64,000 nucleotides of DNA from an uncultured Nostoc sp. (GCF_964245445.1 NZ_CAXTNE010000006.1:3909-67908), one strand, 5' to 3'; shown: positions 269 through 42,568, counted from the stretch's first letter. Numbers and translations: made by a program. Notes: a model not told the origin generated them from the letters alone.

Positions 269-306
269 AAAATATTGCTGGTTTTTGTAGTTTGACAGGG
301 GAGATT

Positions 307-5016: not shown

Positions 5017-6413
5017 AAGAAAATATCCAAGATATATATCCATTATCTCCGATACAGCATGGTATGCTTTTTCACAGTTTGCACGCTCCTGAAATGGAAC
5101 TATACCATGCACAAACCGTCTACACTTTCAGTGGCAATCTGAATCTTGCGGCTTTTAAATACGCTTGGCAGCAAGTAGCAACCCGACACACAATGTTGCG
5201 TACTAGCTTCTATTGGGAAGAATTGGATAAACCACTACAAGTTGTGCATCGGCAAGTAGAAGTACCTGTAGAATATCAAGACTGGCAGGAAATCAATCCA
5301 TTAGAACAGCAAGAGCGTTTACAGTCTTTTCTCAACAGCGATCGCCAGCGACGTTTTGATTTTTCCCAAGCACCTCTAATGCGTGTGGCTATCATCCAGA
5401 TTCAAGAACACGCTTACTACCTTGTTTGGAGTAGCAACCTGATCGTTCTAGATGGTTGGTCATATCCATTGGTATTAAATGATGTGATTGAAATTTATGA
5501 AGCTTATTGTCAGGGTGAGGATGCATCCTTAGCAGATGGCAGTTGCTTTAAAGATTATATCAAATGGCTCAAACAGCAGGATTCATCAAAAGCAGAGGAT
5601 TTCTGGCGACAGCATCTTAATGGAGTTAAAGAGGCTACTCCTTTAAGGAATTTAGAGTCAAACAATTTGTCCAACTTAGAACAACGATACGAGGATATAA
5701 AAATCAGTCTATCGGAAGCAACGACAAAGAATCTATATTTATTAGCAAGACAGCATCACCTCACCATGAGTACCCTAGTTCAGGGAGCTTGGGCTATACT
5801 TCTGTATCACTACAGTGGCAAAAATGATGTAGTCTATGGTTGTACTACTTCTGGTCGTCCAGTAGATTTACAAGGTTCAGAGTCAATGGTAGGGGAAATG
5901 GTTAATACCTTACCAGTAAATATCAAGGTAGATATGAATGAGTATTTATTACCTTGGCTTCAACAATTGCAAAATCAGTTAATAGATATTCGTGAATATG
6001 AATATTATCCATTGGTAGATATTCAAAAGTGCAGCGAAGTTCGGGGTAATGTAACCTTGTTTGAGAGCATAGTGGTGTTCGAGAACCAAAAAACAGGTAA
6101 ATTTCTGGAAGAATGGGGGAGTCTAAACATCTCTGAGAAAACTGAATATTACAAAACTAACTATCCTCTAACGATAGTTGGGTATCCTGGTTCAGAACTG
6201 ACAATTGGGATTAATTATGATTTTCGCCGCTTTGATGCTGCAACAATCATTAATATATTGGAGCATTTAAAAATATTGCTCGAAGGCATAGTGACGAATC
6301 CTAAAGTACGTCTTCAGGAGTTATTATTGCTTATAGAGCAAAAACTCCATATTAAATTATCAATGTTAGAAATAGAAATGTCATTGGATTTTGATTTTGT
6401 TTCCACAAATTAA
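5013..6413 (+). CDS. Stand-alone condensation domain (DCL-like) with degenerate active site
   Basis: Starts with acceptor-type IYPLSPIQHGMLFH. The active-site region reads WSSNLIVLDGWS instead of WSHHHxxxDGWS (codons 5427-5459). There is no A or T domain. Confidence 0.9.
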   Translation: MKENIQDIYPLSPIQHGMLFHSLHAPEMELYHAQTVYTFSGNLNLAAFKYAWQQVATRHTMLRTSFYWEELDKPLQVVHRQVEVPVEYQDWQEINPLEQQERLQSFLNSDRQRRFDFSQAPLMRVAIIQIQEHAYYLVWSSNLIVLDGWSYPLVLNDVIEIYEAYCQGEDASLADGSCFKDYIKWLKQQDSSKAEDFWRQHLNGVKEATPLRNLESNNLSNLEQRYEDIKISLSEATTKNLYLLARQHHLTMSTLVQGAWAILLYHYSGKNDVVYGCTTSGRPVDLQGSESMVGEMVNTLPVNIKVDMNEYLLPWLQQLQNQLIDIREYEYYPLVDIQKCSEVRGNVTLFESIVVFENQKTGKFLEEWGSLNISEKTEYYKTNYPLTIVGYPGSELTIGINYDFRRFDAATIINILEHLKILLEGIVTNPKVRLQELLLLIEQKLHIKLSMLEIEMSLDFDFVSTN

Positions 6414-6614
6414 ATAGCTAGATAAAGCTTAAAAAATAAAAGTTAGCAAAAAAAATATTTCCAATATTTTAATATTGATTTATTTATAATTAGAGAAAAA
6501 GAAGGGGTTTTTGGCTTTTAGCGATCGCTTGTTTGACCCGAAGATTTTTTTGAAGGAAAACCCCAGATTCAGCAATACCAGATTAATGTATTTTGTAATT
6601 TAAATAGAAAACTC

Positions 6615-7871
6615 ATGAATATATTTGAAAAGCGTGAATCAAATGTCAGAAGCTATTGCCGCAATTTTACCGCAATCTTTCATAGAGCTAAAGGTTCTAT
6701 AATTTATTCTGAATCAGGTAAAGAATATATTGATTTTTTAGCAGGAGCAGGTGCTTTAAATTATGGACATAATCACGACTATATCAAAGAAAAGGTGATC
6801 TCATACTTAGATGCCGATGGAATAACACATGGTTTGGATATGTATACTTCGGCTAAGGAGAAATTTTTAGCCAAGTTTGATGAGGTAATACTAAGTTCAA
6901 CAAAACTAGATTATCGCATTCAGTTTTGTGGACCAACAGGAACAAATGCAGTTGAAGCTGCTTTAAAACTAGCGAGAAAAATCAAACGAAGAACAGGCAT
7001 ATTTTCCTTCATGGGAGCATATCACGGAATGACTTTAGGGAGCCTATCGATTAGTGGCAACATCGAAATTAGAGCAGGCACAATTGGTACATCAAGTAAT
7101 GTAAATTTTATGCCTTATCCCTATGGATTCATGGAGAGTTTTGACACAATAGAATATATAAATTCTGTTTTAAATGATGTCAAGTCCGGAATTGAAAAAC
7201 CAGCAGCAATAATCTTTGAAACAGTGCAGGCTGAAGGTGGAGTTGTTGTAGCTCCCATTGAGTGGATGCAAAGACTAAGAAGGTTATGTGACGAGAATGA
7301 TATTTTATTAATCTGCGATGATATTCAGGTTGGCTGTGGTCGAACAGGCTCTTTCTTTTCCTTTGAAAGAGCAGATATTGTTCCCGATATGGTAGTACTT
7401 TCTAAATCTATTAGCGGGTACGGGTTTCCAATGTCACTATTATTGATTAAACCAGAATTGGATATATGGGAACCAGGTGAGCATAATGGTACTTTTCGGG
7501 GTAATCAATTGGCATTTATAGGAGCAACAGCGGCTCTAGAGTATAGAGAAAGTAGCAATCTCGAACAAGATGTCAAAGCCAAAGAACTTTTTTTGAAAAA
7601 TTTTCTCACTCAGCAAATAGCACCAATTAGTGAAAAGATAGCAATACGTGGAATTGGTATGATTTGGGGTATTGATTTAAAAAGTTTTGGCGGCAATAGT
7701 TTTGCTAAAAGTATAACATCACGTTGTTTTGAGCTAGGATTAATAGTTGAACGCGCAGGTAGAAATGATACTGTAATTAAAATTTTGCCCCCTTTGGTAA
7801 TTGATATGTCTACCTTAGAAAAAGGTTGTTCAATTATCAAAGAAGCTTTTAATGACTGCATGTCAAATTAA
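6615..7871 (+). CDS. Diaminobutyrate--2-oxoglutarate transaminase (EctB/Dat-like class III aminotransferase)
   Basis: ESNVRSYCRNF N-terminus, GPTGTNAVEAALKLARK, ETVQAEGG, DDIQVGCGRTG, PLP lysine in LSKSISG. Confidence 0.92.
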   Translation: MNIFEKRESNVRSYCRNFTAIFHRAKGSIIYSESGKEYIDFLAGAGALNYGHNHDYIKEKVISYLDADGITHGLDMYTSAKEKFLAKFDEVILSSTKLDYRIQFCGPTGTNAVEAALKLARKIKRRTGIFSFMGAYHGMTLGSLSISGNIEIRAGTIGTSSNVNFMPYPYGFMESFDTIEYINSVLNDVKSGIEKPAAIIFETVQAEGGVVVAPIEWMQRLRRLCDENDILLICDDIQVGCGRTGSFFSFERADIVPDMVVLSKSISGYGFPMSLLLIKPELDIWEPGEHNGTFRGNQLAFIGATAALEYRESSNLEQDVKAKELFLKNFLTQQIAPISEKIAIRGIGMIWGIDLKSFGGNSFAKSITSRCFELGLIVERAGRNDTVIKILPPLVIDMSTLEKGCSIIKEAFNDCMSN

Positions 7872-7924
7872 ATTGGCATACTAATATTTATAACTCAGCA
7901 AGTAATTTATTATCACGAAACAAT

Positions 7925-10696
7925 ATGAGTACCAAATCACACTCAAATGACTTATTATCTCAAAAAATTTATTGGATAAATAAGTTATCAGGAGAACTAC
8001 CAGAAACAAATCTAATTCTGGACTATGTAAGACCTTCATTTTCTAGTGATAGAAACAAATCTCTTAGCTTTGACTTATCAAATGACTTATCTAAAGCAAT
8101 CATTAAGCTAGCTAAAGGTTCTTATTTTTCAACGTACTTGATATTAGTGTCTGCATTGAATATATTGCTACAAAAATATACTCGAAATAATGATGTTATT
8201 ATTGGAATACCTATATATGAAGAAAATTGTATAGGTTGTGTAAATAGCAAAGTCATTCCCTTGCGTACTCAGGTAACACGTCAACTTTCATTCAAAGATT
8301 TTACTTTTGAAGTAAAAGATGCAATTATCGGTGCTTTCAACAATCAGAACTATAATTTTAATGAGTTAATTAAGTTGTTAGAACTATCAACAAGCCCTAA
8401 TCGTTGTCCAATTTTTGACATAGTAGTTTTATTAGAAAATATTCATAGAAAAAAAGATTTAAATCAACTTAATAATGACATAACATTTTATTTTTCAGTT
8501 AATGGTGAAGATATTATTATTAATGTTGAGTATAAAGAACATCTTTTTCAACGTGAAAATATAAAATTGATGATTAGGTATTATGCTAATGGTCTTGAAA
8601 GTATTATCAAAAATGTGAATGATAAAATATCAGATATTCTTTTTTTGAAAGAATCTGATACACACCAGTTATTGAAACAATATAACAACAATACTAAAAT
8701 ATACCCAGTTGATCAGACAATAAATCAATTATTTGAATATCAGGTATCTCAAACTCCAAATAAGATAGCTGTGATTCACAAATCAGCTAAATTAACATAT
8801 CAAGAAATAAATAAGAAAGCTAATCAAATAGCTAGACTACTACGGAAAATAGGAGTTTCTAAAGGAGAGTTTGTAGGCATTTTTAAAGACCGCGATATCA
8901 ATTTTCTGGTTGCTATCCTTGCTGTCTACAAGGCGGGTGGGGCATATATACCGATTGATAGTACTTATCCACCAAATCGAATTAAATATATGCTATCTAA
9001 TAGCGAAGTTAAATTTATATTAACAGATTGTTCGCTATTAAACTCCTTATCAGACTTGCTAGAACATGATTCGCAATTATCATCTATTATTTGTTTAGAT
9101 GATGTCTTGACTAAGACTACACTATTGGCTAATAAAGCAGAGCTTAAAATATATAGCAAGTGTGATTTTGACCAGCTACCTCATGACAATATAGAACATC
9201 TGAATGATGCTGTCACCCCAGCTTATATACTTTATACTTCCGGCTCTACAGGATTATCTAAAGGGGCAATTGTTAGACATGATGGTGCAATAAATCATAT
9301 TTATGCTCAATTTGATGAGTTGGAGTTAAGGTCGGAATTTTGTTTTCTCCAAAGCGCTCCTTCCTCAACAGATATTTCTGTATGGCAATTTTTGGCGCCA
9401 CTTTTAATTGGCGGAAAGACTATAATTATAGATATCGAAACTGTTGCGATTCCCGAACAATTATTTGAAGTACTTAAATCAGAAAAAATTACGGTTGTTG
9501 AATTAGTACCAACATTATTTGGTGGGTTACTTGAATATACTTCCCAATTACCAAATTATGAGCGGGTATTACCAGATTTAAAATGGATGATATTATCGGG
9601 TGAATCTGTATCGGTTAAATGGGTAAATAAGTGGCTTGAGATATACCCCCATATCAGAATTGCTAATGCTTACGGTCCTACCGAAGCTGCTGATGATATT
9701 ACCCAGTTTATCGTTAACAAACCTTTGCCAGAAAATCAGCGAACAGTTCCAATTGGTAAACCATTAGCAAACTTAAATCTCTACATTCTGGATGAAGAAA
9801 TGCAGCTATTACCTATTGGTGTTCCTGGAGAAATTTGTGTATCGGGAATTGGTGTAGGTGATGGGTACTGGAAAAACGAAGAAAAAACTAATTTAAGCTT
9901 TGTTGCTAACCCGTTTACAAATACCATAAACAGCTTACCTGGTAATCGCAGAGATTTAATTTATAAGACTGGAGATTTAGGAAGATGGCTGACTGATGGG
10001 AATATCGAATTCCTTGGACGTATTGACCATCAAGTGAAGATTCGTGGTTTCCGGGTTGAACTTGGAGAAATTGAGACATTTCTAGGTCAGCACCCGAATG
10101 TACGTGAAAATGTAGTTGTGGTTCAACACGAGCAAGCAGATAACGTGCAATTAGTTGCCTATGTGGTTGCGAAGACAGAAGTAGTTCCTAGTATTAACGA
10201 ACTCCGTAGCTTCTTGAAGGAAAAATTACCTGACCACATGATTCCTTCTGCCTTTGTAGTACTGGAAAAACTACCGCTAGCACCAAGCGGTAAAGTAGAC
10301 CGTAAAGCTCTGCCTAAACCAAATAATCTTCGTTTAGAATTAGAAACAGTTTACGTGTCTCCGCGAAATGAGATAGAGCGGACGGTTGCCGATATTTGGC
10401 AAAAAGTACTTAAGGTGGAGAAAGTTGGCATTAAAGATAACTTTTTTGACCTCGGTGGTCATTCGCTAAATGTACTTCAGGTTTATAGCAAAGTGCGAGA
10501 ACTTTTGAAAGCGGATTTAGCTATAACTGACCTTTTTAAATATCCGACTATAAATTCTTTATCACAGTATTTAAGTCAAAAAAATCATAGTGATGAAGTA
10601 TTTGCTTCTGAAAGTCATCAAATCAATGAAAATCTAGAAGCTGGTAAAGCTAGATTAAAACAAAGCCTCTTACGAAAAAAACAACAACTTATTTAA
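7925..10696 (+). CDS. NRPS: N-terminal half-C domain, A(Dab-like), T
   Basis: The N-terminal ~250 aa resemble only the C-terminal lobe of a C domain (YWINKLSGELP, no HHxxxDG). A code by eye DIWEISADDK is close to the Dab code DIWELTADDK. T motif GGHS. Confidence 0.9.
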   Translation: MSTKSHSNDLLSQKIYWINKLSGELPETNLILDYVRPSFSSDRNKSLSFDLSNDLSKAIIKLAKGSYFSTYLILVSALNILLQKYTRNNDVIIGIPIYEENCIGCVNSKVIPLRTQVTRQLSFKDFTFEVKDAIIGAFNNQNYNFNELIKLLELSTSPNRCPIFDIVVLLENIHRKKDLNQLNNDITFYFSVNGEDIIINVEYKEHLFQRENIKLMIRYYANGLESIIKNVNDKISDILFLKESDTHQLLKQYNNNTKIYPVDQTINQLFEYQVSQTPNKIAVIHKSAKLTYQEINKKANQIARLLRKIGVSKGEFVGIFKDRDINFLVAILAVYKAGGAYIPIDSTYPPNRIKYMLSNSEVKFILTDCSLLNSLSDLLEHDSQLSSIICLDDVLTKTTLLANKAELKIYSKCDFDQLPHDNIEHLNDAVTPAYILYTSGSTGLSKGAIVRHDGAINHIYAQFDELELRSEFCFLQSAPSSTDISVWQFLAPLLIGGKTIIIDIETVAIPEQLFEVLKSEKITVVELVPTLFGGLLEYTSQLPNYERVLPDLKWMILSGESVSVKWVNKWLEIYPHIRIANAYGPTEAADDITQFIVNKPLPENQRTVPIGKPLANLNLYILDEEMQLLPIGVPGEICVSGIGVGDGYWKNEEKTNLSFVANPFTNTINSLPGNRRDLIYKTGDLGRWLTDGNIEFLGRIDHQVKIRGFRVELGEIETFLGQHPNVRENVVVVQHEQADNVQLVAYVVAKTEVVPSINELRSFLKEKLPDHMIPSAFVVLEKLPLAPSGKVDRKALPKPNNLRLELETVYVSPRNEIERTVADIWQKVLKVEKVGIKDNFFDLGGHSLNVLQVYSKVRELLKADLAITDLFKYPTINSLSQYLSQKNHSDEVFASESHQINENLEAGKARLKQSLLRKKQQLI

Positions 10697-10731: not shown

Positions 10732-13700
10732 ATGCCTAACTCAGTAGATTATTTAAGTGACAAAACAGGCTTAGAAATAGCTATTATTGGGATGAGTGGC
10801 TGTTTTCCCAAATCTCAAAATATTGAGCGATTTTGGCAAAATATCCGAGACGGAGTAGAATTGATTCATTATTTCACCGCTTCAGAGCTAAAAGATTTAG
10901 GTGTAGATTCTGCCGACCTGACAAACCCTTATTATGTCAGGGCAGAGGGTGTAGTTGAAGGTATAGATTTGTTTGATGCTTCATTCTTCGGTATAAATCC
11001 CAGAGAAGCTGAAATTATGGATCCCGGACTCCGTTTGTTTTTAGAACATGCATGGACAGCACTTGAAAATGCTGGTTATAGTTCCGAAGCTTACAATCAG
11101 CCGATTGGAGTTTATGTTGGTACTAGTTTTGGCGGTTATTTACGTAATATTTATTCAAATTATGAAATTGTAGAATCTCTTGGTGAACAACAAATAGAGA
11201 AAGGAACCTCTGGAGCTTCCGTTACATTTGCTTCTTATAAATTAAACTTGCAGGGACCAAGTTATGCCGTTCAAACTACCTGCTCAAGTTCATTGGTTGC
11301 TTTACATTTAGCCTGTCAAGGTTTACTTAGTGGCGAGTGTGATGTTGCTTTGGCGGCTGGAGTCTCAATTTCAGAAGCAGTCGGTTATGTATATCAGCAA
11401 GATGGAACTTCATCTCCTGATGGACATTGCCGTGCTTTTGATGTCAAGGCCAAGGGATGTCCGAGAGGAAGGGGTTTAGGTGTTGTAGTTTTAAAGCGTT
11501 TAGACGAAGCGATCGCAGATGGAGACTGCATCCATGCAGTCATCAAAGGTTCCGCCATTAATAATGATGGAGCAAACAAAGTTAGCTACACTGCACCCAG
11601 CGTTGACGGTCAGGCAAAGGTGATTAGAGCGGCTCAGATTATGGCTGAGGTGGAACCCGAAACAATTACCTATATAGAGGCTCATGGGACTGCAACCGCT
11701 CTAGGCGACCCCGTTGAAATTGCTGCTTTAACACAAGCTTTCCGCAGCAAAACTCAGAAAAAGGGCTTTTGTGCGATCGGTTCTTTGAAAACCAACATTG
11801 GACATTTGGACGAAGCTGCTGGCGTTGCAAGTCTAATCAAAACCGTTTTAGCGCTCAAGCATAAACAGATACCACCTAGCTTAAACTTTGAAGAACCTAA
11901 CCCCCAGATAGATTTTGCTAACAGTCCTTTTTACGTTAACAACACATTGTCTGAGTGGAAAAGCAATGACGCTCCTCGTCGTGCTGGAGTTAGTGCTTTT
12001 GGTTTTGGTGGGACAAATGCCCATGTAATTTTAGAAGAAGCGACCATAATTAAACCCTCTAGCCCTTCTCGGTCTTGGCAGTTATTATTACTTTCAACCA
12101 AAACAAATACAGCACTGGAAACTGCTACAGAAAATCTGGCTAATTATCTCCAAAAGCATCCAGATTTCAATCTTGCTGATGTTGCTCATACTTTGCAAGT
12201 GGGTCGCTGGACTTTGAACCATCGCCGAATGGTAGTTTGCCAAGACCAAGGAGATGCAATCAAAGCACTGCAAGACCCTCAAATGGCTTTCACCCATTAC
12301 CAAGAACCTTGTAATCGCTCGATTGTGTTTATGTTTTCTGGACAAGGTTCGCAGTATGTAAACATGGGTCGGGAATTATACGATAGTGAAACCGTATTTA
12401 GAGAGCAAGTTGATTACTGCTGCGAGCTGCTCATACCTCACTTAGAAATAGACCTACGTACAATTTTCTACCCCTGTGAAGAAAAAACTCAAGAAGCAGC
12501 ACAAAAGTTACAGCAAACAGCAATTATTCAACCAGCTTTGTTTGTGCTTGAATATGCTCTAGCCAAGTTATTGATGGCCTGGGGCGTGCGTCCTGAGAGT
12601 ATGATTGGTCACGGTGTAGGAGAGTATGTAGCTGCCACTGTGGCAGGGGTTTTCTCTTTGGAAGATGCCTTGGCAATAGTAGCCACTCGCGGAAAACTAA
12701 TGCAGCAATTGCCTGGTGGTGCTATGCTCTCAGTTCAGCTTCCAGAACAAGAGGTAGAACAACTGCTAGAAAAGGAAATCTCTCTGGCTGCAAGCAATGC
12801 ACCTTCTTCCTGCGTGGTGTCTGGTTCGACAGAAGCGATAGACCAATTGCAACAGATGCTACAAAAAATAGGTGTAAGTTGTAGACATTTGCATACTTCC
12901 CACGCCTTTCATTCTCAAATGATGGAACCCATCATTGAGACTTTCACCTGGTCGTTACAAAAACTAAAACTTAATCCCCCAAAAATTCCTTTTGTGTCCA
13001 ATGTTAGCGGAACTTGGATTACCGTAGCAGAAGCGACAGACCCTAACTATTGGGCGAGGCATTTAAGGCAGCCAGTGCGTTTTAGCCAAGGGGTAACAGA
13101 GTTACTCAAACAGCCAGAGCAAATACTGTTGGAGATTGGCCCGGGACGGACACTGAGTAGTTTGGCTAAACAACATCAAACAGATGAACTGATAGCGCTA
13201 ACCTCTATACGACATCCTCAAGAGCAACAATCAGATGTAGCATTTTTACTCAACACCTTGGGTAGACTTTGGGTAGTAGGAGTTCACATTAATTGGTCTG
13301 GTTTTTACGTAGATGAAAAGCGTCATCGTGTACCCTTACCTACTTATCCTTTTGAGCGCAAGCGTTACTGGCTGGAGGTAAATCGAAATGCACTTCTGGC
13401 AATGAAGTCGCCAAAAACCTTAGATAAGAAGCCAGATATTGCTGACTGGTTCTATATTCCTCGTTGGAGAGAATCTACACCGCTTGAGCTTTTCCAAAAA
13501 CAAAAGCTGGTAGAACAAAAGTTATGTTGGCTAGTTTTTGTCGATACCTATGGAGTTGGATCAGAAATTGCAGAAAGACTCAAACAACAAGGTAAGGATG
13601 TGATTACCGTCAAAGTCGCAAATAATTTTGCGAAACTTAGTGACTGTACATATACAATTAATCCCCAACAGAGAGATGATTATGATATCTTGCTTCAAAC

Positions 13701-15483
13701 ACTAAGAGAGCAGAATTGGACTGCCCAGGGGATTGCCCATTTTTGGGGCGTTACTCCCAACGATACTCTACACTCTCAAGAGCTAGAAAAACAAACACAA
13801 CATCAATTTTTTGAAGATTGTCAGTATCTCGGTTTCTGGAGTCTACTTTTTTTAGCACAGGCCTTAGGAAAACAAGATATTAGCAATTCTCTGAAGATGA
13901 TGGTAGTCACCAGTAATTTATATGATGTAACTGGCGAGGAGAAATTATGCCCTTCTAAAGCAACCGTATTAGGGCCATGTAAGGTAATTCCCAAGGAATA
14001 TTCAAACATATATTGCCGTAATATTGATATAGTAGTCAATTCTTTAAAAACCCCACCAGGACAAAATGTTTTAGACAATTTGCTCGCAGAATTTACAGCA
14101 GATCAAACAGATGACATAGTTGCCTACCGTGGTTATCATCGCTGGATTCAATCCTTCGAGCCTGTGCATTTAGAACAGAGCATAGCTGATAAAACTAAGT
14201 TAAAGGAGGGAGGGGTTTACTTAATTACTGGTGGACTAGGCGGTATTGGTTTAGTATTAGCAGAACATCTAGCAAAGAAAGTGCAGGCTAAATTAGTTCT
14301 AGTTGGACGAAAGAGTATTCCCGAAAAAAATAATTGGCAAGAATGGTTGGCAACTCATGATCAACAAGATAGGGTTAGCCGGATAATTTGTAAACTGCAA
14401 GTATTAGAGGCTCTTGGTGCAGAAGTTTTGGTAATCAGCGCAGATGTGACTAATTCCGAACAAATGCAGGCTGTGATTGCTCAGTCAACAGCAAAATTTG
14501 GTGTGATTAATGGTGTTGTCCACGCAGCTGGTATTGCTGGTGGCGGTGTCATCCAACTTAAAACCCCGGATATAGCAAGCAAGGTACTCGCACCAAAAGT
14601 CAGAGGAACGATATTACTAGAGCAAGTTTTTCAGAATATTAATCTAGATTTCTTGGTACTTTGTTCATCCCAAAGTTCTATATTGGGTGAATTTGGACAG
14701 GTAGATTATTGCGCGGCTAATGCATTTCTTGATGTATATGCATATAATCAAGTTTCTAAATCTGGACGATTAACAATATCAATCGACTGGGATACTTGGC
14801 AAGAAGTAGGTATGGCAACGGAGATTATTTTACCAGATAATCTCAAATATATAGCTGAAGATGTAGTTGCAGAAGAGTTAAAAGAAGCTATAATGCCCCA
14901 AGAAGGCGCTGATGCTTTTGATCGCATTTTGGGAAGTGCCTTACCTCACGTTGTTGTGTCAACAAAAAATTTCTCAGATGTAATTAAGGAGAATCATTAT
15001 CTCAATTTTCTGGCAGAAGGATTAAAACTTCTGGAAGATAACTCAGCTTCAGCTAGTATTTTCCAAGTAAACCATCCTCGCCCAAATCTAGGTAATGATT
15101 ATGTTGCACCTAATAATGAAATTGAAGGAACTATTGCTCGAATCTGGCAACAGATCCTGGGAATTAATCAAATAGGTATTCATGATAGCTTTTTTGATTT
15201 GGGAGGACATTCCCTATTAGCTACTCAACTTCTCTCTCGATTGCGTCAAGAGTTTCAAGTAAACCTGTCTCTGCATAGCTTTTTTGAAGCACCCACTATT
15301 ATCGATCAAGCATTGATGGTTGAACAGACCCGAAGTTCGGGAGAAAGGTATAGTATCAACATGATTGAAAGAATCGAGCGGAGTAATGAGCAACAGGTGT
15401 TGGCAAAGCTCGATCAAATTTCAGACCAAGAAGTAGAGTTACTGCTTAATAAGGTGTTAGCAGAAAAGGGAACCGAGCAATGA
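10732..15483 (+). CDS. Type I PKS KS-AT(inactive)-KR-ACP
   Basis: KS triad TTCSSS, EAHGT, GHL. AT active site is GHGVG (Ser to Gly at 12613-12615) with HAFH. KR has GGLGGIG and QVDYCAAN. ACP GGHS. Confidence 0.95.
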   Translation: MPNSVDYLSDKTGLEIAIIGMSGCFPKSQNIERFWQNIRDGVELIHYFTASELKDLGVDSADLTNPYYVRAEGVVEGIDLFDASFFGINPREAEIMDPGLRLFLEHAWTALENAGYSSEAYNQPIGVYVGTSFGGYLRNIYSNYEIVESLGEQQIEKGTSGASVTFASYKLNLQGPSYAVQTTCSSSLVALHLACQGLLSGECDVALAAGVSISEAVGYVYQQDGTSSPDGHCRAFDVKAKGCPRGRGLGVVVLKRLDEAIADGDCIHAVIKGSAINNDGANKVSYTAPSVDGQAKVIRAAQIMAEVEPETITYIEAHGTATALGDPVEIAALTQAFRSKTQKKGFCAIGSLKTNIGHLDEAAGVASLIKTVLALKHKQIPPSLNFEEPNPQIDFANSPFYVNNTLSEWKSNDAPRRAGVSAFGFGGTNAHVILEEATIIKPSSPSRSWQLLLLSTKTNTALETATENLANYLQKHPDFNLADVAHTLQVGRWTLNHRRMVVCQDQGDAIKALQDPQMAFTHYQEPCNRSIVFMFSGQGSQYVNMGRELYDSETVFREQVDYCCELLIPHLEIDLRTIFYPCEEKTQEAAQKLQQTAIIQPALFVLEYALAKLLMAWGVRPESMIGHGVGEYVAATVAGVFSLEDALAIVATRGKLMQQLPGGAMLSVQLPEQEVEQLLEKEISLAASNAPSSCVVSGSTEAIDQLQQMLQKIGVSCRHLHTSHAFHSQMMEPIIETFTWSLQKLKLNPPKIPFVSNVSGTWITVAEATDPNYWARHLRQPVRFSQGVTELLKQPEQILLEIGPGRTLSSLAKQHQTDELIALTSIRHPQEQQSDVAFLLNTLGRLWVVGVHINWSGFYVDEKRHRVPLPTYPFERKRYWLEVNRNALLAMKSPKTLDKKPDIADWFYIPRWRESTPLELFQKQKLVEQKLCWLVFVDTYGVGSEIAERLKQQGKDVITVKVANNFAKLSDCTYTINPQQRDDYDILLQTLREQNWTAQGIAHFWGVTPNDTLHSQELEKQTQHQFFEDCQYLGFWSLLFLAQALGKQDISNSLKMMVVTSNLYDVTGEEKLCPSKATVLGPCKVIPKEYSNIYCRNIDIVVNSLKTPPGQNVLDNLLAEFTADQTDDIVAYRGYHRWIQSFEPVHLEQSIADKTKLKEGGVYLITGGLGGIGLVLAEHLAKKVQAKLVLVGRKSIPEKNNWQEWLATHDQQDRVSRIICKLQVLEALGAEVLVISADVTNSEQMQAVIAQSTAKFGVINGVVHAAGIAGGGVIQLKTPDIASKVLAPKVRGTILLEQVFQNINLDFLVLCSSQSSILGEFGQVDYCAANAFLDVYAYNQVSKSGRLTISIDWDTWQEVGMATEIILPDNLKYIAEDVVAEELKEAIMPQEGADAFDRILGSALPHVVVSTKNFSDVIKENHYLNFLAEGLKLLEDNSASASIFQVNHPRPNLGNDYVAPNNEIEGTIARIWQQILGINQIGIHDSFFDLGGHSLLATQLLSRLRQEFQVNLSLHSFFEAPTIIDQALMVEQTRSSGERYSINMIERIERSNEQQVLAKLDQISDQEVELLLNKVLAEKGTEQ

Positions 15484-18400
15484 CCAAGAATCGCGAAAAA
15501 ATTAATGATATTTCACCAGAAAGAAAACGTGAATTGTTGGCAAAACTACTTCAAGAAAAGGTTAGCCAGCTTCAGATTTTTCCAATGTCTTTTGGTCAAC
15601 AACGACTTTGGTTTATAGACCAATTGCAACCTGGTAACTTTGCTAATCACATATCGGCAGCTTTGCGTCTTACAGGTTTCCTGAATCAAGCTGTATTATT
15701 GCAAACCCTGGATGAAATAGTGCAACGCCACGAAGTTTTGCGAACTACTTTCGCAACGGTGGAAGAAAAACCTGTTCAGGTAATTATTCCTACTTTAAGC
15801 TTGAATTTACCTACCATCAATCTGGAGGAATTATCTGAGGTTGAGCAAGAAGCTGAAGTTAAAAAGTTAGTTATACAAGAAATTCAGCAACCCTTTAATT
15901 TGAGCCAAGCTCCATTACTGCGAGCTACTTTGCTGCGTCTCAAAGAAACAGAACACATTTTAGTGTTCACAATGCACCATATTATCTCTGACGGATGGTC
16001 AATGGGAGTACTGACTCAAGAAGTCGCAGTACTTTACGAAGCCTTCTCGAAAGGGCAGCCTTCTTTGCTTTCAGAACTGCCAATACAGTATGTAGACTTT
16101 GCAGCTTGGCAGCGACAAAGGCTACAAGGAGAACTACTACAATCACAAATAGCTTATTGGAAAAACCAGTTAGAGGGCGCACCAAAATTATTAGAGTTAC
16201 CTACTGACTACCCACGACCTGCCGTTAGCAGCTTTCAGGGTGCCAGCTATTCATTTGAGTTATCTGATGATTTATATGTAGCCTTAAATAAATTGAGCCA
16301 GCAGTATGGAAGTACCTTATTTATGATCCTGCTGGCAGCCTTTCAAACATTACTATGGCGTTATACAGGTAGTGAAGATATTGTAGTCGGCTCGCCCATT
16401 GCTAACCGCGATCGCACAGAGTTAGAAGGATTAATTGGTTTTTTTGCCAATACAATTGCACTGCGAACTAATTTGGTAGGTAATCCTACCTTTGAGGATC
16501 TACTAACTCGCGTGCGGACAAAGCTATTAGAAGCTTACACCCATCAAGATTTACCTTTTGAGCAACTAGTAGAAGAACTGCAACCACAAAGAAACTTGAG
16601 CTACACCCCAGTATTTCAAGTGATGTTTGTACTTCAAAATACACCAATGTCAGTTTTTGAGTTGCCTGGTTTGACTATAAGTCCCTTGGCAATTGATAAT
16701 GGTAGTGCCAAGTTTGATTTGACCCTAGAGATAACAGAAACACCACAAAAAATTTTTGCTAACCTGGAGTTTAATACAGATTTATTTAAGGAAAGTACTA
16801 TTAAGCGGATGGCTGGACATTTCCAGACCTTACTTAAAGAGATTATTGCAAACCCGAAACTACGGCTTTCAGAATTATCACTGCTAACAGAAGCAGAAAA
16901 ACGTCAATTACTAGTGGAGTGGAATGACACTCAGGTTAATTATCCTCAAGATCAATGCATCCATCAGTTATTCGAGGCTCAAGTAGAACGCACACCTGAT
17001 TCTATAGCAGTGGTGTTTGAAGACCAACAGTTGACCTATGGGGAATTAAACACCAAAGCAAATCAACTAGCGCATTATTTGCAAACATTAGGAGTAAAAC
17101 CAGAAGTATTAGTCGGGATTTGTGTAGAGCGATCGCTGTTAATGGCGATCGGACTATTAGCCATCCTGAAAGCAGGTGGTGCATATATACCATTAGACCA
17201 CAGCTATCCTCAAGAACGCATTGCATTTATACTAGAAGACACTCAAGCCCCAGTCTTGCTTACTCAAGAGTCGCTTCTTGAGGCGATGCCGCAACACAAA
17301 GCTAAAGTGGTTTGTTTAGATACCGATTGGCAGACAATCGCCCAACAAACCCAGGAAAATTTATTATCTCTTGTCAATAGTCAGAACTTAGCTTATATCA
17401 TCTATACCTCAGGTTCAACAGGCAGACCAAAAGGTGTAATGATTCAACACGCAAACACAGTTGCAATGTTGGATTGGGCAAACAAAACCTTTGCGATGGA
17501 AGCTATGCAAGGAGTTTTAGCATCAACCTCAATTTGCTTCGATCTTTCGGTATTCGAGATATTTGTTCCTCTGTGTTGTGGTGGCAAAGTGATTTTAATC
17601 GAGAACGCACTCTTGTTACCAACTTCATCAGTAGCCTTAGATGTAACCTTAATTAATACTGTCCCAAGTGTAATTTCACAGTTATTAAAAACTGATAGTA
17701 TTCCAGCTTCAGTGCAGATTGTGAATGTCGCAGGTGAACCACTTCATAATAAACTTGTACAACAACTTTATCAGCAAGATAATATACAAAAAGTATTTAA
17801 CCTATATGGACCTTCAGAAGATACAACTTATTCAACCTTTGCCTGCATACACAAGGATACCAGCAGCACTCCACCTATCGGTCGCCCGATTTACAACACC
17901 CAGATTTATTTATTAGATCAAAATTTACAACCTGTTCCTGTAGGTGTAGCAGGGATGTTGTATATTGGTGGTGCAGGTTTAGCCCGTGGTTATCTAAACA
18001 AAGCGGAACTGACTGCCGAGAAATTTATTCCCAATCCTTACGCCAACTTGCCAGGGGAACGGTTATATAAAACTGGAGATCAAGCACGCTATTTGCCTAA
18101 TGGAGAGATCGAATATATTGGTCGCGTTGACTATCAAGTAAAAGTGCGTGGTTTTCGTATTGAACTGTTAGAAATTGAAGCAGTTATTATTCAACACCCA
18201 ACAGTCCAAGAAGCTGTAGTTGTGGTTAATTTTTCACAGGCGGATTCTCAACAAATAGTTGCCTATATAGTTCCACAAATAGAGCAAACGCTAACGATTT
18301 CTGAACTGCGTGGCTTTTTGGAGTCAAAGTTGCCAAGCTATATGGTGCCAGCAGCTTTTGTGATATTATCAGCACTACCATTAACACCTAATGGTAAGGT

Positions 18401-20135
18401 TGACCGTAAGGCACTACCTACACCTGATACAGCTAGACCTGAAGACAAAGAACTAGTAGCACCGCAGACAACCCTTGAAAAGCAGTTGGCTGTGATCTGG
18501 ACAGAAGTATTAGGCCTGAAAAATATAAGTATAAACGACAACTTTTTTGGATTAGGTGGGGATTCGATTCTTAGCCTTCAAGTAATATCCAAAGCCAACC
18601 AAACAGGGCTGCACCTAACTCCTAAACAGATGTTTCAGTACCAAACTATTGCCCAATTAGCGACAGTAATTGGTGCAACTCAGAAAATTCAAGCTGAACA
18701 AGGAGTTTTAACTGGAGCGCTAGAGCTAATACCTATTCAGCACTGGTTTTTTGAACAAAAGCAACCAGAACCACACCATTGGAATCAAGCTGTATTCTTA
18801 GAAAGCAAGCAGAATATTGACCCTGTGGTTTTAGAGAAAATTATAAAGTTTCTACAAATACATCATGATGTACTACGTTTACGATTTATACAAGAGGAAT
18901 TTAGTACTCAAGCACTTATTGTTAGTCCTGATGATGTAATACCACTGACATGCTTTAATTTCTCAGCACTACCAAAAGATCGACAATCGCCAGCAATAGA
19001 GGCAGCAGCAACTAAACTTCAAGCTAGCTTAAATCTGTCACAAGGGCCGTTATTCCAGGTTGCGCTTTTCAACTTGGGCGACAATCAACCCAACCGCTTG
19101 CTTTGGATTATTCACCACTTAGCTGTTGATGGTGTCTCTTGGCGAATTTTAATTGAAGATTTTCAAACAGCTTACCAGCAAATTAGTCAAGGCAAAGTAA
19201 TTAAGTTGCCACCCAAAACAACTTCTTACAAACAATGGTCTAGCCATCTACAAAAATATGCACAAGCTTCAGCACTACTTTCAGAGCTAGACTTTTGGCT
19301 GAGAACACAATATCAATCAGTTTCGTCTATACCAAGAGATTTTCCTGATGGAAATAATATAGAAGAAACCACTTCTATGGTATCGGTATCGCTGTCTGTA
19401 GAAGAAACCCAAAGTTTGCTGCAACAAGTGCCAGCAGCTTACCAAACACAAATTAATGATGTATTGTTAACAGCACTTATACTAACGTTTAATCACTGGA
19501 CGGGAGAAAATTCTCTACTAATTGACTTGGAAGGGCATGGGCGAGAAGAAATCTTTGAGGATGTGGACTTATCGAGGACTATCGGTTGGTTTACAACTAT
19601 TTTCCCAGTACACCTAAAGCTGGAAAATGCCAACGAGCAAGGAAAAGTCTTGAAGTCAATAAAAGAGCAGCTACGAGCAATTCCGAATCGAGGTATTGGC
19701 TATGGATTACTGCGCTATCTTTGTCAGGACAAAAAAATAGCTGAACAATTTTCCTCATCAAAGGCTGAAGTTGCTTTCAACTATTTAGGACAGTTCGATC
19801 AAGTTTTACCAGAATCATCTTTATTTAGCTTCGCGCAGGAATCGAGTGGTTCTACTAAAAATTTGCAAAGTAAACGAACTCATTTACTGGAAATTAACGG
19901 TGGTATTTATCAAGGAAATTTGGAAATGAGTTGGTTTTACAGTAGTCAGTTGCATCGACAAACCACGATTGAAGTACTTGCTCAGAGGTTTATTGAGGAA
20001 CTGCGATCGCTGATTGCTCATTGCCTATCTCCCAATGCAGGTGGTTTTACCCCTTCCGATTTCGCAGATTTTCAGCAAAGCCAATGGGATCAAACCGATC
20101 TCGATGCCATTACAGCAGCTATGGGGGATATCTAA
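15480..20135 (+). CDS. NRPS module C-A(Ala)-T-E (D-Ala)
   Basis: C MHHIISDGWS; A domain identical to that of 307-5016; T GGDS; E HHLAVDGVSW; COM TPSDFADF. Confidence 0.95.
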   Translation: MTKNREKINDISPERKRELLAKLLQEKVSQLQIFPMSFGQQRLWFIDQLQPGNFANHISAALRLTGFLNQAVLLQTLDEIVQRHEVLRTTFATVEEKPVQVIIPTLSLNLPTINLEELSEVEQEAEVKKLVIQEIQQPFNLSQAPLLRATLLRLKETEHILVFTMHHIISDGWSMGVLTQEVAVLYEAFSKGQPSLLSELPIQYVDFAAWQRQRLQGELLQSQIAYWKNQLEGAPKLLELPTDYPRPAVSSFQGASYSFELSDDLYVALNKLSQQYGSTLFMILLAAFQTLLWRYTGSEDIVVGSPIANRDRTELEGLIGFFANTIALRTNLVGNPTFEDLLTRVRTKLLEAYTHQDLPFEQLVEELQPQRNLSYTPVFQVMFVLQNTPMSVFELPGLTISPLAIDNGSAKFDLTLEITETPQKIFANLEFNTDLFKESTIKRMAGHFQTLLKEIIANPKLRLSELSLLTEAEKRQLLVEWNDTQVNYPQDQCIHQLFEAQVERTPDSIAVVFEDQQLTYGELNTKANQLAHYLQTLGVKPEVLVGICVERSLLMAIGLLAILKAGGAYIPLDHSYPQERIAFILEDTQAPVLLTQESLLEAMPQHKAKVVCLDTDWQTIAQQTQENLLSLVNSQNLAYIIYTSGSTGRPKGVMIQHANTVAMLDWANKTFAMEAMQGVLASTSICFDLSVFEIFVPLCCGGKVILIENALLLPTSSVALDVTLINTVPSVISQLLKTDSIPASVQIVNVAGEPLHNKLVQQLYQQDNIQKVFNLYGPSEDTTYSTFACIHKDTSSTPPIGRPIYNTQIYLLDQNLQPVPVGVAGMLYIGGAGLARGYLNKAELTAEKFIPNPYANLPGERLYKTGDQARYLPNGEIEYIGRVDYQVKVRGFRIELLEIEAVIIQHPTVQEAVVVVNFSQADSQQIVAYIVPQIEQTLTISELRGFLESKLPSYMVPAAFVILSALPLTPNGKVDRKALPTPDTARPEDKELVAPQTTLEKQLAVIWTEVLGLKNISINDNFFGLGGDSILSLQVISKANQTGLHLTPKQMFQYQTIAQLATVIGATQKIQAEQGVLTGALELIPIQHWFFEQKQPEPHHWNQAVFLESKQNIDPVVLEKIIKFLQIHHDVLRLRFIQEEFSTQALIVSPDDVIPLTCFNFSALPKDRQSPAIEAAATKLQASLNLSQGPLFQVALFNLGDNQPNRLLWIIHHLAVDGVSWRILIEDFQTAYQQISQGKVIKLPPKTTSYKQWSSHLQKYAQASALLSELDFWLRTQYQSVSSIPRDFPDGNNIEETTSMVSVSLSVEETQSLLQQVPAAYQTQINDVLLTALILTFNHWTGENSLLIDLEGHGREEIFEDVDLSRTIGWFTTIFPVHLKLENANEQGKVLKSIKEQLRAIPNRGIGYGLLRYLCQDKKIAEQFSSSKAEVAFNYLGQFDQVLPESSLFSFAQESSGSTKNLQSKRTHLLEINGGIYQGNLEMSWFYSSQLHRQTTIEVLAQRFIEELRSLIAHCLSPNAGGFTPSDFADFQQSQWDQTDLDAITAAMGDI
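16911..18463 (+). repeat. 1553-bp direct repeat, copy 2
   Basis: Same sequence as 1783-3335; I saw no mismatch by eye. Confidence 0.95.
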
Positions 20136-20136
20136 C

Positions 20137-23100
20137 ATGGGTGTGCAAAATAAAAACATTGAAGATTTTTATCCCCTCTCGCCTATGCAGCAGGGCATTC
20201 TGTTCCATAGTCTTGCAGATCCTAAATCTGGCATCTATTTTGAACAATTTAGCTGGACTCTCCACGGAAAGCTCAACGTTACAGCCTTTCATCGGGCATG
20301 GCAGCATATTGTAGAACAATATTCCATTCTCCGAACCTGCTTTGTTTGGGAAGGCTTAAAAGAACCAGTACAAATTGTGCATCGACAGGTGGCTTTACCG
20401 TGGCACGAGTATAATTGGCAGGATCTCTCCCCAGAAGAACAACAACAAAAGTTAGAACTTTTCTTACAAAGCGATCGCTCTAGTGGCTTTGAACTTAAGC
20501 AGCCACCATTGATGCGCTTAACACTGATTCAGCTTTCAGATATTTCCTATAACTTTACCTGGAGTCATCATCATCTGTTGCTAGATGGCTGGTCTGTTGC
20601 CTTAGTTTTTAAAGAAGTCCTTGCTTGTTACAAAGCTTTCAGCAATGGTCAAGATTTATACTTAGAATCAATTCGCCCGTATCGAGATTACATTGTCTGG
20701 CTACAGCAACAAAACCTATCTGAAGCTGAGACTTTCTGGCGACAGATGCTTAAAGGTTTTACCACTCCGACACAGCTATCGGTGAATCAAGGAACTAGAA
20801 AATTACTGACTCAAACAGATGGCTATGACGAGCGAGAAGTTAAACTTTCTGTAGTAACAACAGCAGCATTGCAGTCTGTAGCAAAGCAACACCAGTTAAC
20901 GCTGAACACTCTAGTACAGGGAGCCTGGGCTTTGCTATTGAGCTGCTACAGTGGTCAAGAAGACGTAGTTTTTGGGGCAGTAACTTCTGGTCGTCCCCCT
21001 ACTTTACCTCAAGCCGAGTCTATGGTAGGGCTGTTTATCAACATGTTACCGATTAGAGTACAAGTATCACCCAAAGAATTTCTTTTGCCTTGGCTTCAGA
21101 AAATCAAAGATCAACTAGTTGAAGCACGGCAATACGAGTATTGTCCATTAGTGAAAGTCCAAGAATGGAGCGAAGTTTCCAAAGGTGTATCTCTGTTCGA
21201 GAGTATAGTAGTTTTTGAGAACTATGCTGTAGATCCTTCCTTACGGCAGAGGGATATAAATTTGGAGATAGAGGAATTTCATAGCTTTGAAAAGACTAAC
21301 TATCCGATAACCCTAAGCGTGAATCCAGGTGAGGAGTTGTTGCTCAATATTACTTGCGATGACAGCGATCGCTTCGACACTGACACTATCACCCGGATGC
21401 TAGGACATTTACAGACTTTGCTAGAGGGTATGTCCACCAATCCACAGCAACGTCTTGGTGAGTTATCGCTCTTAACAGAACATGAGCGACATCAGTTACT
21501 TGTGGAATGGAATCAAACTCAGGTTGAATATTCTCAAGATCAATGCATCCATCAGTTATTCGAGGCTCAAGTAGAACGTACACCTGATGCGATCGCAGTG
21601 GTGTTTGAAGACCAACAGTTGAGCTACTGCGAACTCAACGCCAGAGCCAATCAACTAGCATATTATTTACAAACTTTAGGAGTAAAACCAGAAGTATTAG
21701 TCGGGATTTGTGTAGAGCGATCAATCGAGATGATAATTGGGATATTAGCCATCCTCAAAGCTGGGGGAGCCTATGTACCGATCGATCCAACCTATCCACA
21801 GCAGCGATTGGCACTGCTGCTAAATGATGCTCCACTTACAGTATTACTTACACAACAGTACCTACTGGCACAATTACCACCACATACAGCAAAAGTCATC
21901 TGCTTAGATGACGATATTAATTGGCAAGCCGGATCATCAGCAATCAAACAAAACCCTGTAAATCAAACCACCCCTGCAAATCTAGTCTATGTGATTTATA
22001 CATCAGGCTCTACTGGCACACCTAAAGGTGTTACTATTGAACATCAGTCTTTGGTAAACTTTGTCCAAGCAGCGATCGCAGAGTACGAACTACAAGCACA
22101 AGACCGGATCTTGCAATTTGCCTCTATCAGCTTCGATGTTGCTTGCGAAGAAATTTTTTCTTGTTTGCTGCATGGCGCAACCTTGGTACTGCGAACCGAT
22201 GATATGCTGGCTTCAATACCAGCTTTATTGGAAAAATGCCAACAACAGTGTATATCTGTTTTAGACATACCTACTGCCTTCTGGCATCAGCTAACTTCTG
22301 AACTTTCAACATCAGAATTAAAGTTACCAGAATCACTGCGCCTAGTTATTATTGGTGGCGAAAAAGCTTCCCCAGATAAGGTTCTCACCTGGCAACAAAA
22401 AGTAAAACCAGAGATAAGGCTAGTAAATGCTTATGGTCCGACAGAAACTACGGTTAGCGCTACGGTTTGCAACTTTGCAAGAACCAAAGAACTGGTAAAA
22501 GTGGAGCGCGAAGTTCCCATTGGACGAGCGATCGCTAATATGCAAACCTATGTGTTAAATACTGATTTACAACCGGTTCCCATCGGTGTTTGGGGCGAAT
22601 TGTACATTGGAGGAATTGGCGTAGCCAGAGGTTATCTGCACCAACCAGGACTAACAGCTCAGAAGTTTATACCAAATCCTTTTAGCGATCGCCCAGGTTC
22701 TCGTCTTTACAAAACAGGCGATCGGGTACGCTACCGCAGCGATGGTCAAATTGAATTTAGCGATCGTATTGACAACCAAGTAAAAATTAGGGGCTTCCGT
22801 ATTGAGCTAGGGGAAATAGAAGCACTCATCAACGAACATCCATCTGTTATGGAAGCAACAGTGATTTCTAGGAAAGATGTGTCAGACTACGAGCAGTTAG
22901 TGGCTTATGTAGTTGCTAATACATCTGATGTTGTAAAAGAGCAAACATCAGCAGTTGTGTCTCAATTACGGCAGCATTTAGAGGCGAAGCTGCCGAACTA
23001 CATGATGCCGTCAGCATTCGTGATGCTAAATGCACTACCACTTACACCTAATGGTAAGGTTGATCGCCAAGCATTGCCTGCACCTGGTACGACAAGACCT

Positions 23101-23469
23101 AAATTAGAAGCAGCTTATCAGCCACCCCAAACCGAAATAGAAAAAACTATTGCTAGTATATGGCAACAAATACTGAATGTTGAGGACGTAGGAATTTATG
23201 ACAATTTCTTTGAACTTGGTGGTCATTCATTGCTATTAATTCAAGTTCATAGCAAGTTGCAAAAAGTATTTCAGCGATATTTCACCTTAGTTGATATGTT
23301 TGAATATCCGACTGTAAGTCACTTGGCTAAATATTTTAGTCAGGAATCTAGCGAAGAAACACCTGTTTTACTAGCTGCTCATCATCCAGAGAGCAGAACG
23401 GCTTCAGTACAGCGGCGAAAACAAGTTAGAAAACAGTATCGAGAAGCAACAAAGCAAAAAGATATTTAG
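20137..23469 (+). CDS. NRPS module C(DCL)-A(basic amino acid, Arg/Lys/Orn-like)-T
   Basis: The likely start is the ATG at 20137, one base after the upstream stop (the ORF-track start at 20014 overlaps the previous gene). FYPLSPMQQG, WSHHHLLLDGWS; A code by eye DVEDIGAVSK; T GGHS. Confidence 0.92.
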   Translation: MGVQNKNIEDFYPLSPMQQGILFHSLADPKSGIYFEQFSWTLHGKLNVTAFHRAWQHIVEQYSILRTCFVWEGLKEPVQIVHRQVALPWHEYNWQDLSPEEQQQKLELFLQSDRSSGFELKQPPLMRLTLIQLSDISYNFTWSHHHLLLDGWSVALVFKEVLACYKAFSNGQDLYLESIRPYRDYIVWLQQQNLSEAETFWRQMLKGFTTPTQLSVNQGTRKLLTQTDGYDEREVKLSVVTTAALQSVAKQHQLTLNTLVQGAWALLLSCYSGQEDVVFGAVTSGRPPTLPQAESMVGLFINMLPIRVQVSPKEFLLPWLQKIKDQLVEARQYEYCPLVKVQEWSEVSKGVSLFESIVVFENYAVDPSLRQRDINLEIEEFHSFEKTNYPITLSVNPGEELLLNITCDDSDRFDTDTITRMLGHLQTLLEGMSTNPQQRLGELSLLTEHERHQLLVEWNQTQVEYSQDQCIHQLFEAQVERTPDAIAVVFEDQQLSYCELNARANQLAYYLQTLGVKPEVLVGICVERSIEMIIGILAILKAGGAYVPIDPTYPQQRLALLLNDAPLTVLLTQQYLLAQLPPHTAKVICLDDDINWQAGSSAIKQNPVNQTTPANLVYVIYTSGSTGTPKGVTIEHQSLVNFVQAAIAEYELQAQDRILQFASISFDVACEEIFSCLLHGATLVLRTDDMLASIPALLEKCQQQCISVLDIPTAFWHQLTSELSTSELKLPESLRLVIIGGEKASPDKVLTWQQKVKPEIRLVNAYGPTETTVSATVCNFARTKELVKVEREVPIGRAIANMQTYVLNTDLQPVPIGVWGELYIGGIGVARGYLHQPGLTAQKFIPNPFSDRPGSRLYKTGDRVRYRSDGQIEFSDRIDNQVKIRGFRIELGEIEALINEHPSVMEATVISRKDVSDYEQLVAYVVANTSDVVKEQTSAVVSQLRQHLEAKLPNYMMPSAFVMLNALPLTPNGKVDRQALPAPGTTRPKLEAAYQPPQTEIEKTIASIWQQILNVEDVGIYDNFFELGGHSLLLIQVHSKLQKVFQRYFTLVDMFEYPTVSHLAKYFSQESSEETPVLLAAHHPESRTASVQRRKQVRKQYREATKQKDI

Positions 23470-42550: not shown

Positions 42551-42568
42551 TAAGTAAATAAATTAAAA

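Follow-up and report, generated by a model that had tools for sequence, protein, structure and literature searches.

The polyketide synthase (PKS) module encoded by open reading frame (ORF) 5, at positions 10732–15483 of a 64,000-nucleotide stretch of DNA from an uncultured Nostoc sp., appears from its sequence to be a working chain-extension module whose built-in acyltransferase (AT) is a catalytically dead structural remnant. Its acyl carrier protein (ACP) is probably loaded in trans by a discrete AT of the same gene cluster. The stretch, hereafter the window (NZ_CAXTNE010000006.1:3909-67908 of GCF_964245445.1), is filled from 1 to ~46,000 by a single hybrid nonribosomal peptide synthetase (NRPS)-PKS cluster with a G+C content of ~40%, the nearest relatives of which come from Nostoc genomes and metagenome bins, many of them from lichens and mosses. 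Positions are counted from the first letter of the window, and all window features described lie on the plus strand. We refer to the window's cluster type as type A and to that of loci L088+L004, L001 and L007 as type B.

ORF5 (1,583 amino acids; Pfam, translation) has the makeup of a type I modular PKS module, with ketosynthase (KS), AT, ketoreductase (KR) and ACP in that order on one polypeptide (Pfam scores of 221.5 bits for ketoacyl-synt, 187.4 for Acyl_transf_1, 166.9 for KR and 61.7 for PP-binding). The AT (12322–13311), which we call AT0, has a full-length acyltransferase fold without the nucleophile. As a sequence-only reading of the window had claimed, the codon at the catalytic serine position is GGT (12613–12615; Gly628 in the context MIGHGVGEY, hence GHGVG), whereas both sister ATs of the cluster have AGT, encoding the serine of MIGHSIGEY. 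The nucleophilic serine of GHSxG that marks an active AT is missing, and no serine, cysteine or threonine stands beside Gly628. The remaining catalytic parts are kept, including GQGSQ, Arg653 and a HAFH motif with His727. Because residue 628 is glycine rather than serine, the ORF5 ACP should not be loadable by its own AT.

The other three domains were also said to be intact, and this held. The KS (10774–12051) retains its Cys-His-His residues (TTCSSS, HGTAT, NIGH), the KR catalytic subdomain (14212–14805; Pfam KR and alignment) retains its NADPH and catalytic motifs (TGGLGGIG/K/S/Y-xx-N), and the ACP (15130–15306; Pfam PP-binding) carries its serine (codon 15211–15213) in LGGHSL. Three deviations previously listed for the KS, namely DPGLR, GCPRGRG and GHLDE, are all present, but they are no evidence of an impaired domain and GHLDE is not specific, since it occurs elsewhere in 9 of 67 relatives. 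DPGLR and GCPRGRG were found in all ten members of the clade of AT-defective modules and in none of the 67 relatives, and are therefore markers of the clade. All ten members keep the KS cysteine and both decarboxylation histidines and share TTCSSS and NIGHLD; three carriers have HGTAT in place of HGTGT. The ACP site reads GG[H/Q/N]SL instead of the usual GGDSL in all ten AT-defective modules (15205–15219 in ORF5). We did not use this motif as a signature of trans loading, as it also occurs in 40 of 67 AT-positive relatives.

A glycine codon one A-to-G transition away from the AGT of the sister ATs could result from faulty sequencing or assembly, or from a recent inactivation in a cluster that is silent or decaying, but the data make this explanation very improbable. 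We checked the base in contigs ~97% identical to the window from four independent public runs (assembler depths of 3.7–122); no indexed run holds this exact genome, and the best runs contain 0.42 of its words. The G at 12613 is kept in the contigs of all four runs, while positions 12616, 12599 and other nearby sites differ, which disposes of the error that the sequence-only reading had allowed for. Its other proposal, a recent point mutation silencing the cluster, is contradicted by the age of the lesion (synonymous divergence, dS, up to ~0.38 among carriers), by purifying selection on the AT remnant and by the intactness of the clusters, with all long ORFs intact in six related loci.

The same lesion was found in orthologues, identified as the nearest proteins in a collection of 5.8 billion. 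The motif is GHG in six of them (P0001, P0003, P0004, P0006, P0008 and P0019, which are 95%, 84%, 82%, 80%, 80% and 74% identical, respectively), GDG in P0002 and GHD with an additional Arg-to-Gln change in P0005. Thus, eight orthologues (74–95% identical) have glycine or aspartate at the nucleophile site; a ninth, P0016, has kept the serine and lost the catalytic histidine instead (HAFN). Orthologues as distant as 74% identity still have GGT, surrounded by synonymous and other nearby changes, and the codons observed are consistent with stepwise change from AGT to GGT to GAT, and from CAC to GAC. P0002, P0005 and P0008 have independently undergone in-frame deletions of differing extent, equivalent to residues 674–730, 658–728 and 663–727 of ORF5; these cover the small subdomain and the catalytic histidine in FabD numbering anchored on Ser92, Arg117 and His201. 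This stretch, 12703–12921 in the window, is also deleted in the older AT remnant of type B. The flanking megasynthase ORFs are intact in every deletion carrier.

Pairwise Nei-Gojobori estimates between carriers gave ratios of nonsynonymous to synonymous change (dN/dS) of 0.17–0.25 for AT0 (0.3 and 0.34 for the two closest pairs, with dS <0.1), 0.09–0.20 for the KS and 0.10–0.54 for the KR, with dS of up to 0.38. No carrier has lost the KS Cys-His-His residues, the KR motifs or the ACP serine. Because dN/dS is well below 1 in every domain, the ORF5-type module is evidently in use. The dead AT appears to be kept as a folded part of the module, with its catalytic apparatus free to decay. In a KS tree, the AT-defective modules form one clade in which P0016 is nested inside the glycine carriers; the KS-AT and KR-ACP halves of these modules have different histories. 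The simplest reading of this pattern would be that the AT first became dispensable and was then struck several times.

Where could the extender unit come from? The sequence-only reading had proposed looking upstream for a discrete AT, and one was found in syntenic genomes with ORF5 orthologues that are 95–98% identical: Nostoc punctiforme NIES-2108 (L008/L016), Nostoc sp. DedQUE04 (L087/L002) and the P3034 bin (P0123). In L008 and L087, where the gene order could be read directly, the ORF1 orthologue is preceded by the discrete AT, a 3-hydroxyacyl-CoA dehydrogenase (3HCDH), an 82-amino-acid ACP, an acyl-CoA dehydrogenase (ACAD), a Cupin_8/JmjC protein and FkbH; in P3034, only the discrete AT was seen on the same contig. 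Cupin_8 aside, this cassette corresponds to the FkbH/I/J/K (ZmaN/E/D/G) genes for hydroxymalonyl-ACP synthesis, and the AT is encoded next to them. The discrete AT has 468 amino acids and consists of a KS-AT linker and an AT with GYSIG, the arginine and HAFH. Its catalytic motifs are kept in all 39 of the closest family members (73–100% identical). Between type A and type B, dN/dS is 0.21 for the discrete AT and 0.12–0.17 for 3HCDH, ACP and ACAD, and 0.12–0.21 for the discrete AT and core cassette with FkbH included.

The window itself contains the 3' end of the gene for FkbH, a member of a phosphatase/glyceryl transferase family (2–268; the last 88 codons and the stop, recognized by comparing the frame-2 translation with full-length relatives). 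This end is 96.6% identical in amino acids to the C-terminus of the protein encoded at L008:8900-9970 in NIES-2108 and 95.5% identical to DedQUE04 FkbH; a full-length FkbH relative scores 275.7 bits against TIGR01686 (cutoff 146.65) and contains DLDNT. The earlier statement that FkbH lies upstream of ORF5 was correct in that the gene exists, but it is 10.4 kb and four genes away, with its 3' end alone in the window, and the direct neighbor of ORF5 is the NRPS at 7925–10696. The 3HCDH, ACP and ACAD genes beside FkbH, which lie outside the window, occur in the type-B locus L088 as well. In a Blastocatellia metagenome-assembled genome (L074, 1098–4139; 9476), a 3HCDH/ACAD/FkbH cassette (64–70% identical) adjoins a PKS with GSGAG and no arginine in its AT, so the pairing of the cassette with an AT-null module exists outside the cyanobacteria, in an acidobacterial metagenome bin.

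Comparison with the other modules shows how exceptional ORF5 is within its cluster type. The other type-A PKS modules all have an AT serine: PKS1 (KS-AT-DH-ER-KR-ACP) reads GES in the 90–92%-identical relatives P0241 and P0242, PKS2 (KS-AT-cMT-KR-ACP, upstream of the window) reads GYS, and the sister modules ORF9 (25320–30002, KS-AT-KR-ACP; AT serine codon 27231–27233) and ORF10 (30043–34674, KS-AT-KR*-ACP; AT serine codon 31927–31929) both read GHS in intact, malonyl-type ATs. ORF5 is therefore the only PKS module without an AT nucleophile in the type-A cluster, which encodes exactly one free AT. The cluster is not a canonical trans-AT PKS, as its other modules have intact cis ATs and both the KS-AT linker and the AT belong to the CurL/ZmaA cis type; ORF5 would work like a trans-AT module without being a member of the trans-AT PKS family. 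In type B, FkbH is immediately followed by a PKS with an intact KS and an AT remnant, which reads GHG (or GQG) and has lost the arginine, the small subdomain and HAFH through an 83-amino-acid deletion. This remnant is so degenerate that the module cannot work without a trans AT. The ORF5-type module of type-B genomes may be intact (GHS and HAFH in P0007), carry GHG (P0003) or carry GHG with a deletion (P0008). All stages are thus represented in the family, from intact through point-dead (the window) and small-subdomain-deleted to a deep remnant.

Based on these observations, we propose the following route. The NRPS at 7925–10696 would load 2,4-diaminobutyrate (Dab) made by the adjacent EctB and hand the aminoacyl chain to the ORF5 KS. 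The discrete AT, predicted to be encoded just upstream of the window start, would load the ORF5 ACP in trans, after which the KS would condense the Dab unit with the extender, the ORF5 KR would reduce the resulting ketone and the chain would move on to the next NRPS. Loading by the discrete AT is the best explanation because ORF5 is the only module of its cluster type without an AT nucleophile, and discrete ATs are able to complement cis modules that have been engineered to be AT-null (reviewed in PMC6164871).

The extender placed on the ORF5 ACP could be either hydroxymalonyl, taken from the cassette ACP, or malonyl. Trans loading of hydroxymalonyl had been suggested earlier; the trans loading is supported by the dead AT, the conserved lesion and the discrete AT beside the cassette, but hydroxymalonyl is plausible only, given the malonyl-type HAFH of the discrete AT. 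In its favor, the discrete AT always lies beside the cassette, there is no other obvious client of the cassette in type A and the discrete AT has tyrosine in GYS, as do ZmaA-AT and ZmaF (PMC4207774). ATs that take ACP-bound extenders have been described as reading GYS and not GHS; ZmaA-AT has a small residue in place of the phenylalanine of xAFH (GAAH) together with a hydrophobic MxM/MxW patch, while ZmaF keeps the phenylalanine (GPFH) (PMC4207774). The discrete AT has A-C-R at the RxR position and no hydrophobic MxM patch. It therefore lacks the ZmaA-AT type of specificity signature, although the GPFH of ZmaF makes this comparison non-decisive for function. As a marker of ACP-bound extenders, GYS is weakened by its presence, together with GLGTHY and the insert, in the cis ATs of the KS-AT-cMT-KR-ACP module and of a ~2,025-amino-acid type-B PKS. 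We also rejected the top PDB match of the discrete AT, ZmaA-AT (4qbu), as evidence of specificity, as ORF9 AT (406 bits) and AT0 (384 bits) match ZmaA even better.

Several observations weigh against trans loading of hydroxymalonyl by the discrete AT. The intact cis ATs of ORF9 and ORF10, which belong to the same assembly line, could also serve in trans. The discrete AT, 3HCDH, ACP and ACAD are attributed to this genome on the basis of synteny and the FkbH 3' end. The discrete AT has the malonyl-type HAFH and not the GAAH of ZmaA-AT, and GLGTHY, an insert of ~30 amino acids and KHLCQPVLF are common to it and to cis ATs of ordinary modules, C-methylating ones included. Because the top match to ZmaA-AT is common to malonyl-type ATs, it reflects lineage and carries no information on specificity. 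The discrete AT also shares a contig with ORF5-type relatives that read GHS (P0007/P0136, P0010/P0138, P0034/P0129 and P0030/P0132); its presence is thus not specific to AT0 carriers and is no proof that it serves ORF5. We considered and rejected the idea that the discrete AT is confined to AT0 carriers, as it is family-wide.

It is conceivable, though rather unlikely, that the ORF5 ACP receives malonyl from an intact cis AT (ORF9, ORF10 or the upstream PKS1 or PKS2) or from housekeeping FabD, and that the discrete AT and the cassette serve another module. ORF9 and ORF10 have intact malonyl-type ATs (GHSIG, arginine, HAFH) in the same assembly line, the ancestral ORF5-type module had a malonyl-type cis AT (the syntenic P0007 has GHS and HAFH), FabD-type enzymes can complement AT-null modules (PMC6164871), and the cis AT of upstream PKS2 is of the discrete-AT lineage and could be the consumer of the cassette. 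However, such an arrangement would leave the conserved type-A discrete AT (dN/dS of 0.21 relative to type B) without an AT-less client, and the same family already relies on a discrete AT for the type-B AT-remnant module. In addition, cis ATs are tethered in their own modules, and cross-module loading by cis ATs is usually inefficient. A pass-through role, in which no extender is loaded and the KS of a skipped ORF5 module merely transfers the Dab-containing chain, would account for the dead AT and might explain the clade-specific DPGLR and GCPRGRG next to conserved pocket motifs as well as the HGTAT of three carriers. We consider this improbable, as non-elongating KS0 domains typically lose the histidine of HGTGT, a loss that was not seen in ORF5, where both decarboxylation histidines are present as they are throughout the ten-member clade. 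Furthermore, the KR and ACP are under purifying selection with intact motifs, and a KR would have no substrate in a module that does not extend. Loading by the discrete AT therefore remains the explanation that we favor.

More tentatively, the cluster family may record a switch from cis to trans AT in progress, including a change of extender and adaptive diversification; taken as a whole, we regard this scenario as possible but doubtful. A cis AT may first have split off together with its KS-AT linker to become a free-standing AT, which may then have made resident cis ATs dispensable. Repeated inactivation may have followed (Ser to Gly and then Gly to Asp, His to Asp, His to Asn and Arg to Gln), as may recurrent in-frame excision of the small subdomain alone, converging on the large-subdomain-only scaffold after the KS that is seen in the older remnant module. 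Finally, with the AT loss in type A, hydroxymalonyl may have replaced malonyl as the unit after Dab, giving a predicted 2,3-dihydroxy-4,6-diaminohexanoyl unit; the lesion would then represent adaptive diversification and not decay.

Service of an AT-null module in trans is a known mechanism, as in zwittermicin, colibactin, oxazolomycin and engineered AT-null DEBS; what is added here is a natural decay series and a product prediction. The zwittermicin A pathway of Bacillus cereus is likewise a hybrid NRPS-PKS system with an amino-polyol-type chain, in which an FkbH-type enzyme, a free ACP, 3HCDH and ACAD build an ACP-bound extender and a free-standing AT lies among those genes; its ZmaA-AT is the closest solved structure to all ATs of the present cluster. 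In zwittermicin, however, hydroxymalonyl is loaded by the cis ZmaA-AT (GAAH) and the discrete ZmaF delivers aminomalonyl, whereas the present discrete AT keeps HAFH and an N-terminal KS-AT linker, which makes it look like a split-off cis AT, and the dead AT of the putative client module is still full-length. Aminomalonyl genes were not seen. In colibactin biosynthesis, the discrete AT ClbG loads an ACP-bound unusual extender onto modules with an absent or non-functional AT. That extender is aminomalonyl, in another organism and another module lineage, and we know of no series of intermediate AT decay states described for colibactin.

Trans-AT PKS modules with vestigial AT remnants (formerly ‘AT docking domains’) resemble ORF5 in having a KS followed by a non-catalytic AT remnant, with a discrete AT, and mixed cis/trans systems include kirromycin (KirCI/KirCII) and oxazolomycin (OzmC, methoxymalonyl-ACP). 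KirCII, OzmC and ZmaF are known examples of discrete ATs whose specificity is not for malonyl (PMC6164871). Unlike in the vestigial-AT modules, the KS and AT described here belong to a CurL-like cis-AT lineage (Pfam CurL-like_PKS_C; PDB matches to CurL and ZmaA), the AT remnant of ORF5 retains both subdomains of a complete AT fold and the other modules keep active cis ATs. AT-null DEBS modules regain function when a discrete malonyl transferase or a trans-AT is supplied (PMC6164871), but these are laboratory constructs, whereas the AT-null state of ORF5 is natural, inherited and long under selection.

The remaining genes of the window show the setting of ORF5 in its cluster. We found no description of this cluster or its product in the literature searched, no relevant match in a plasmid collection and no record in an exact-match look-up of the ORF5 protein. 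After FkbH, ORF1 (292–5016; Pfam) is an NRPS module with condensation (C), adenylation (A), peptidyl carrier protein (PCP) and epimerization (E) domains and a hand-extracted A-domain code of DLFNNALTYK (Ala-like). It is followed by a stand-alone condensation domain (5013–6413; Pfam), which immediately precedes the EctB/Dab cassette in every related cluster (L001, L002, L004, L005, L007 and L008), and by an EctB-type diaminobutyrate-2-oxoglutarate transaminase that supplies Dab (6615–7871; TIGR02407 score of 575.6 bits, cutoff 552.2). The NRPS at 7925–10696 has a truncated C domain (Condensation profile positions 186–456 only), an A domain and a PCP (Pfam Condensation, AMP-binding and PP-binding). 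Its code, extracted by hand from motifs, is DIWEISADDK (Dab-like), similar to the Dab code DIWELTADDK. G+C falls to 0.32–0.34 over the EctB and truncated-C/A/PCP genes (6000–10000) compared to ~0.40 on either side, and the block of stand-alone C, EctB, Dab module and ORF5-type PKS recurs in differently organized clusters, which suggests a mobile sub-cluster.

Downstream of ORF5 are two NRPS modules (15480–20135 and 20014–23469), a PanP-type pyridoxal-dependent aspartate 1-decarboxylase (23627–25273; TIGR03799 score of 614.7 bits, cutoff 606.1), ORF9 and ORF10, a methyltransferase (34715–35476), an NRPS with C, A, PCP and thioesterase (TE) domains (35658–39770), and two P450s, a MATE exporter, an SDR and an O-methyltransferase (39789–46046). 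The listed TTG start of the second NRPS module overlaps the preceding ORF by 122 nucleotides and is probably too far upstream; the module (1,151 amino acids) has no N-methyltransferase insert, while its orthologue in the 95%-identical DedQUE04 cluster (L002 19409–23971, 1,520 amino acids) has one. PanP immediately precedes a pair of consecutive PKS modules and implies beta-alanine as a building block, but a recognizable beta-Ala code was not identified in any A domain.

Two cases of near-perfect repetition were found within the cluster. The AT regions of ORF9 and ORF10 (26937–28018 and 31633–32714) are 99.8% identical in DNA over 1,082 nucleotides, compared to no more than 74% for the KS and KR-ACP parts, which suggests that the AT domains evolve in concert. 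Between ORF1 and ORF6, the A domains (~1850–3300 and ~16980–18430), 15,128 bp apart, are 100% identical in DNA over ~1.4 kb with flanking C and E regions at 40–75%, reflecting either intra-cluster gene conversion or a collapsed assembly repeat. The ORF10 KR (~33520–34110) looks inactive, with TGGLESIE, changes at the conserved Arg and Lys positions and a Pfam KR score of 70 bits versus 167–170 in sister modules. In type B, the cluster is flanked by a periplasmic binding protein and a TonB-dependent receptor with an AMIN domain (L088 1–3969). As the AMIN-domain TonB receptor context has recently been linked to uptake of a cyanobacterial siderophore (cyanochelin), the product family may be a metallophore; the published cyanochelin cluster differs in architecture from this family despite the common receptor context.

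These findings call for caution in automated cluster annotation, where the ORF5 AT would be scored as malonyl-specific and active. For PKS engineering, the graded natural series of ATs with working neighbors gives ready-made boundaries for AT-null modules, and the family offers a testable picture of trans-AT architecture arising from cis-AT lines. The cluster is carried by Nostoc strains, some of them associated with lichens, mosses or soil. Should ORF5 be loaded by the discrete AT, the dead AT would be a design feature of their assembly line and would predict an unusual hydroxylated diamino-acid unit in the product.

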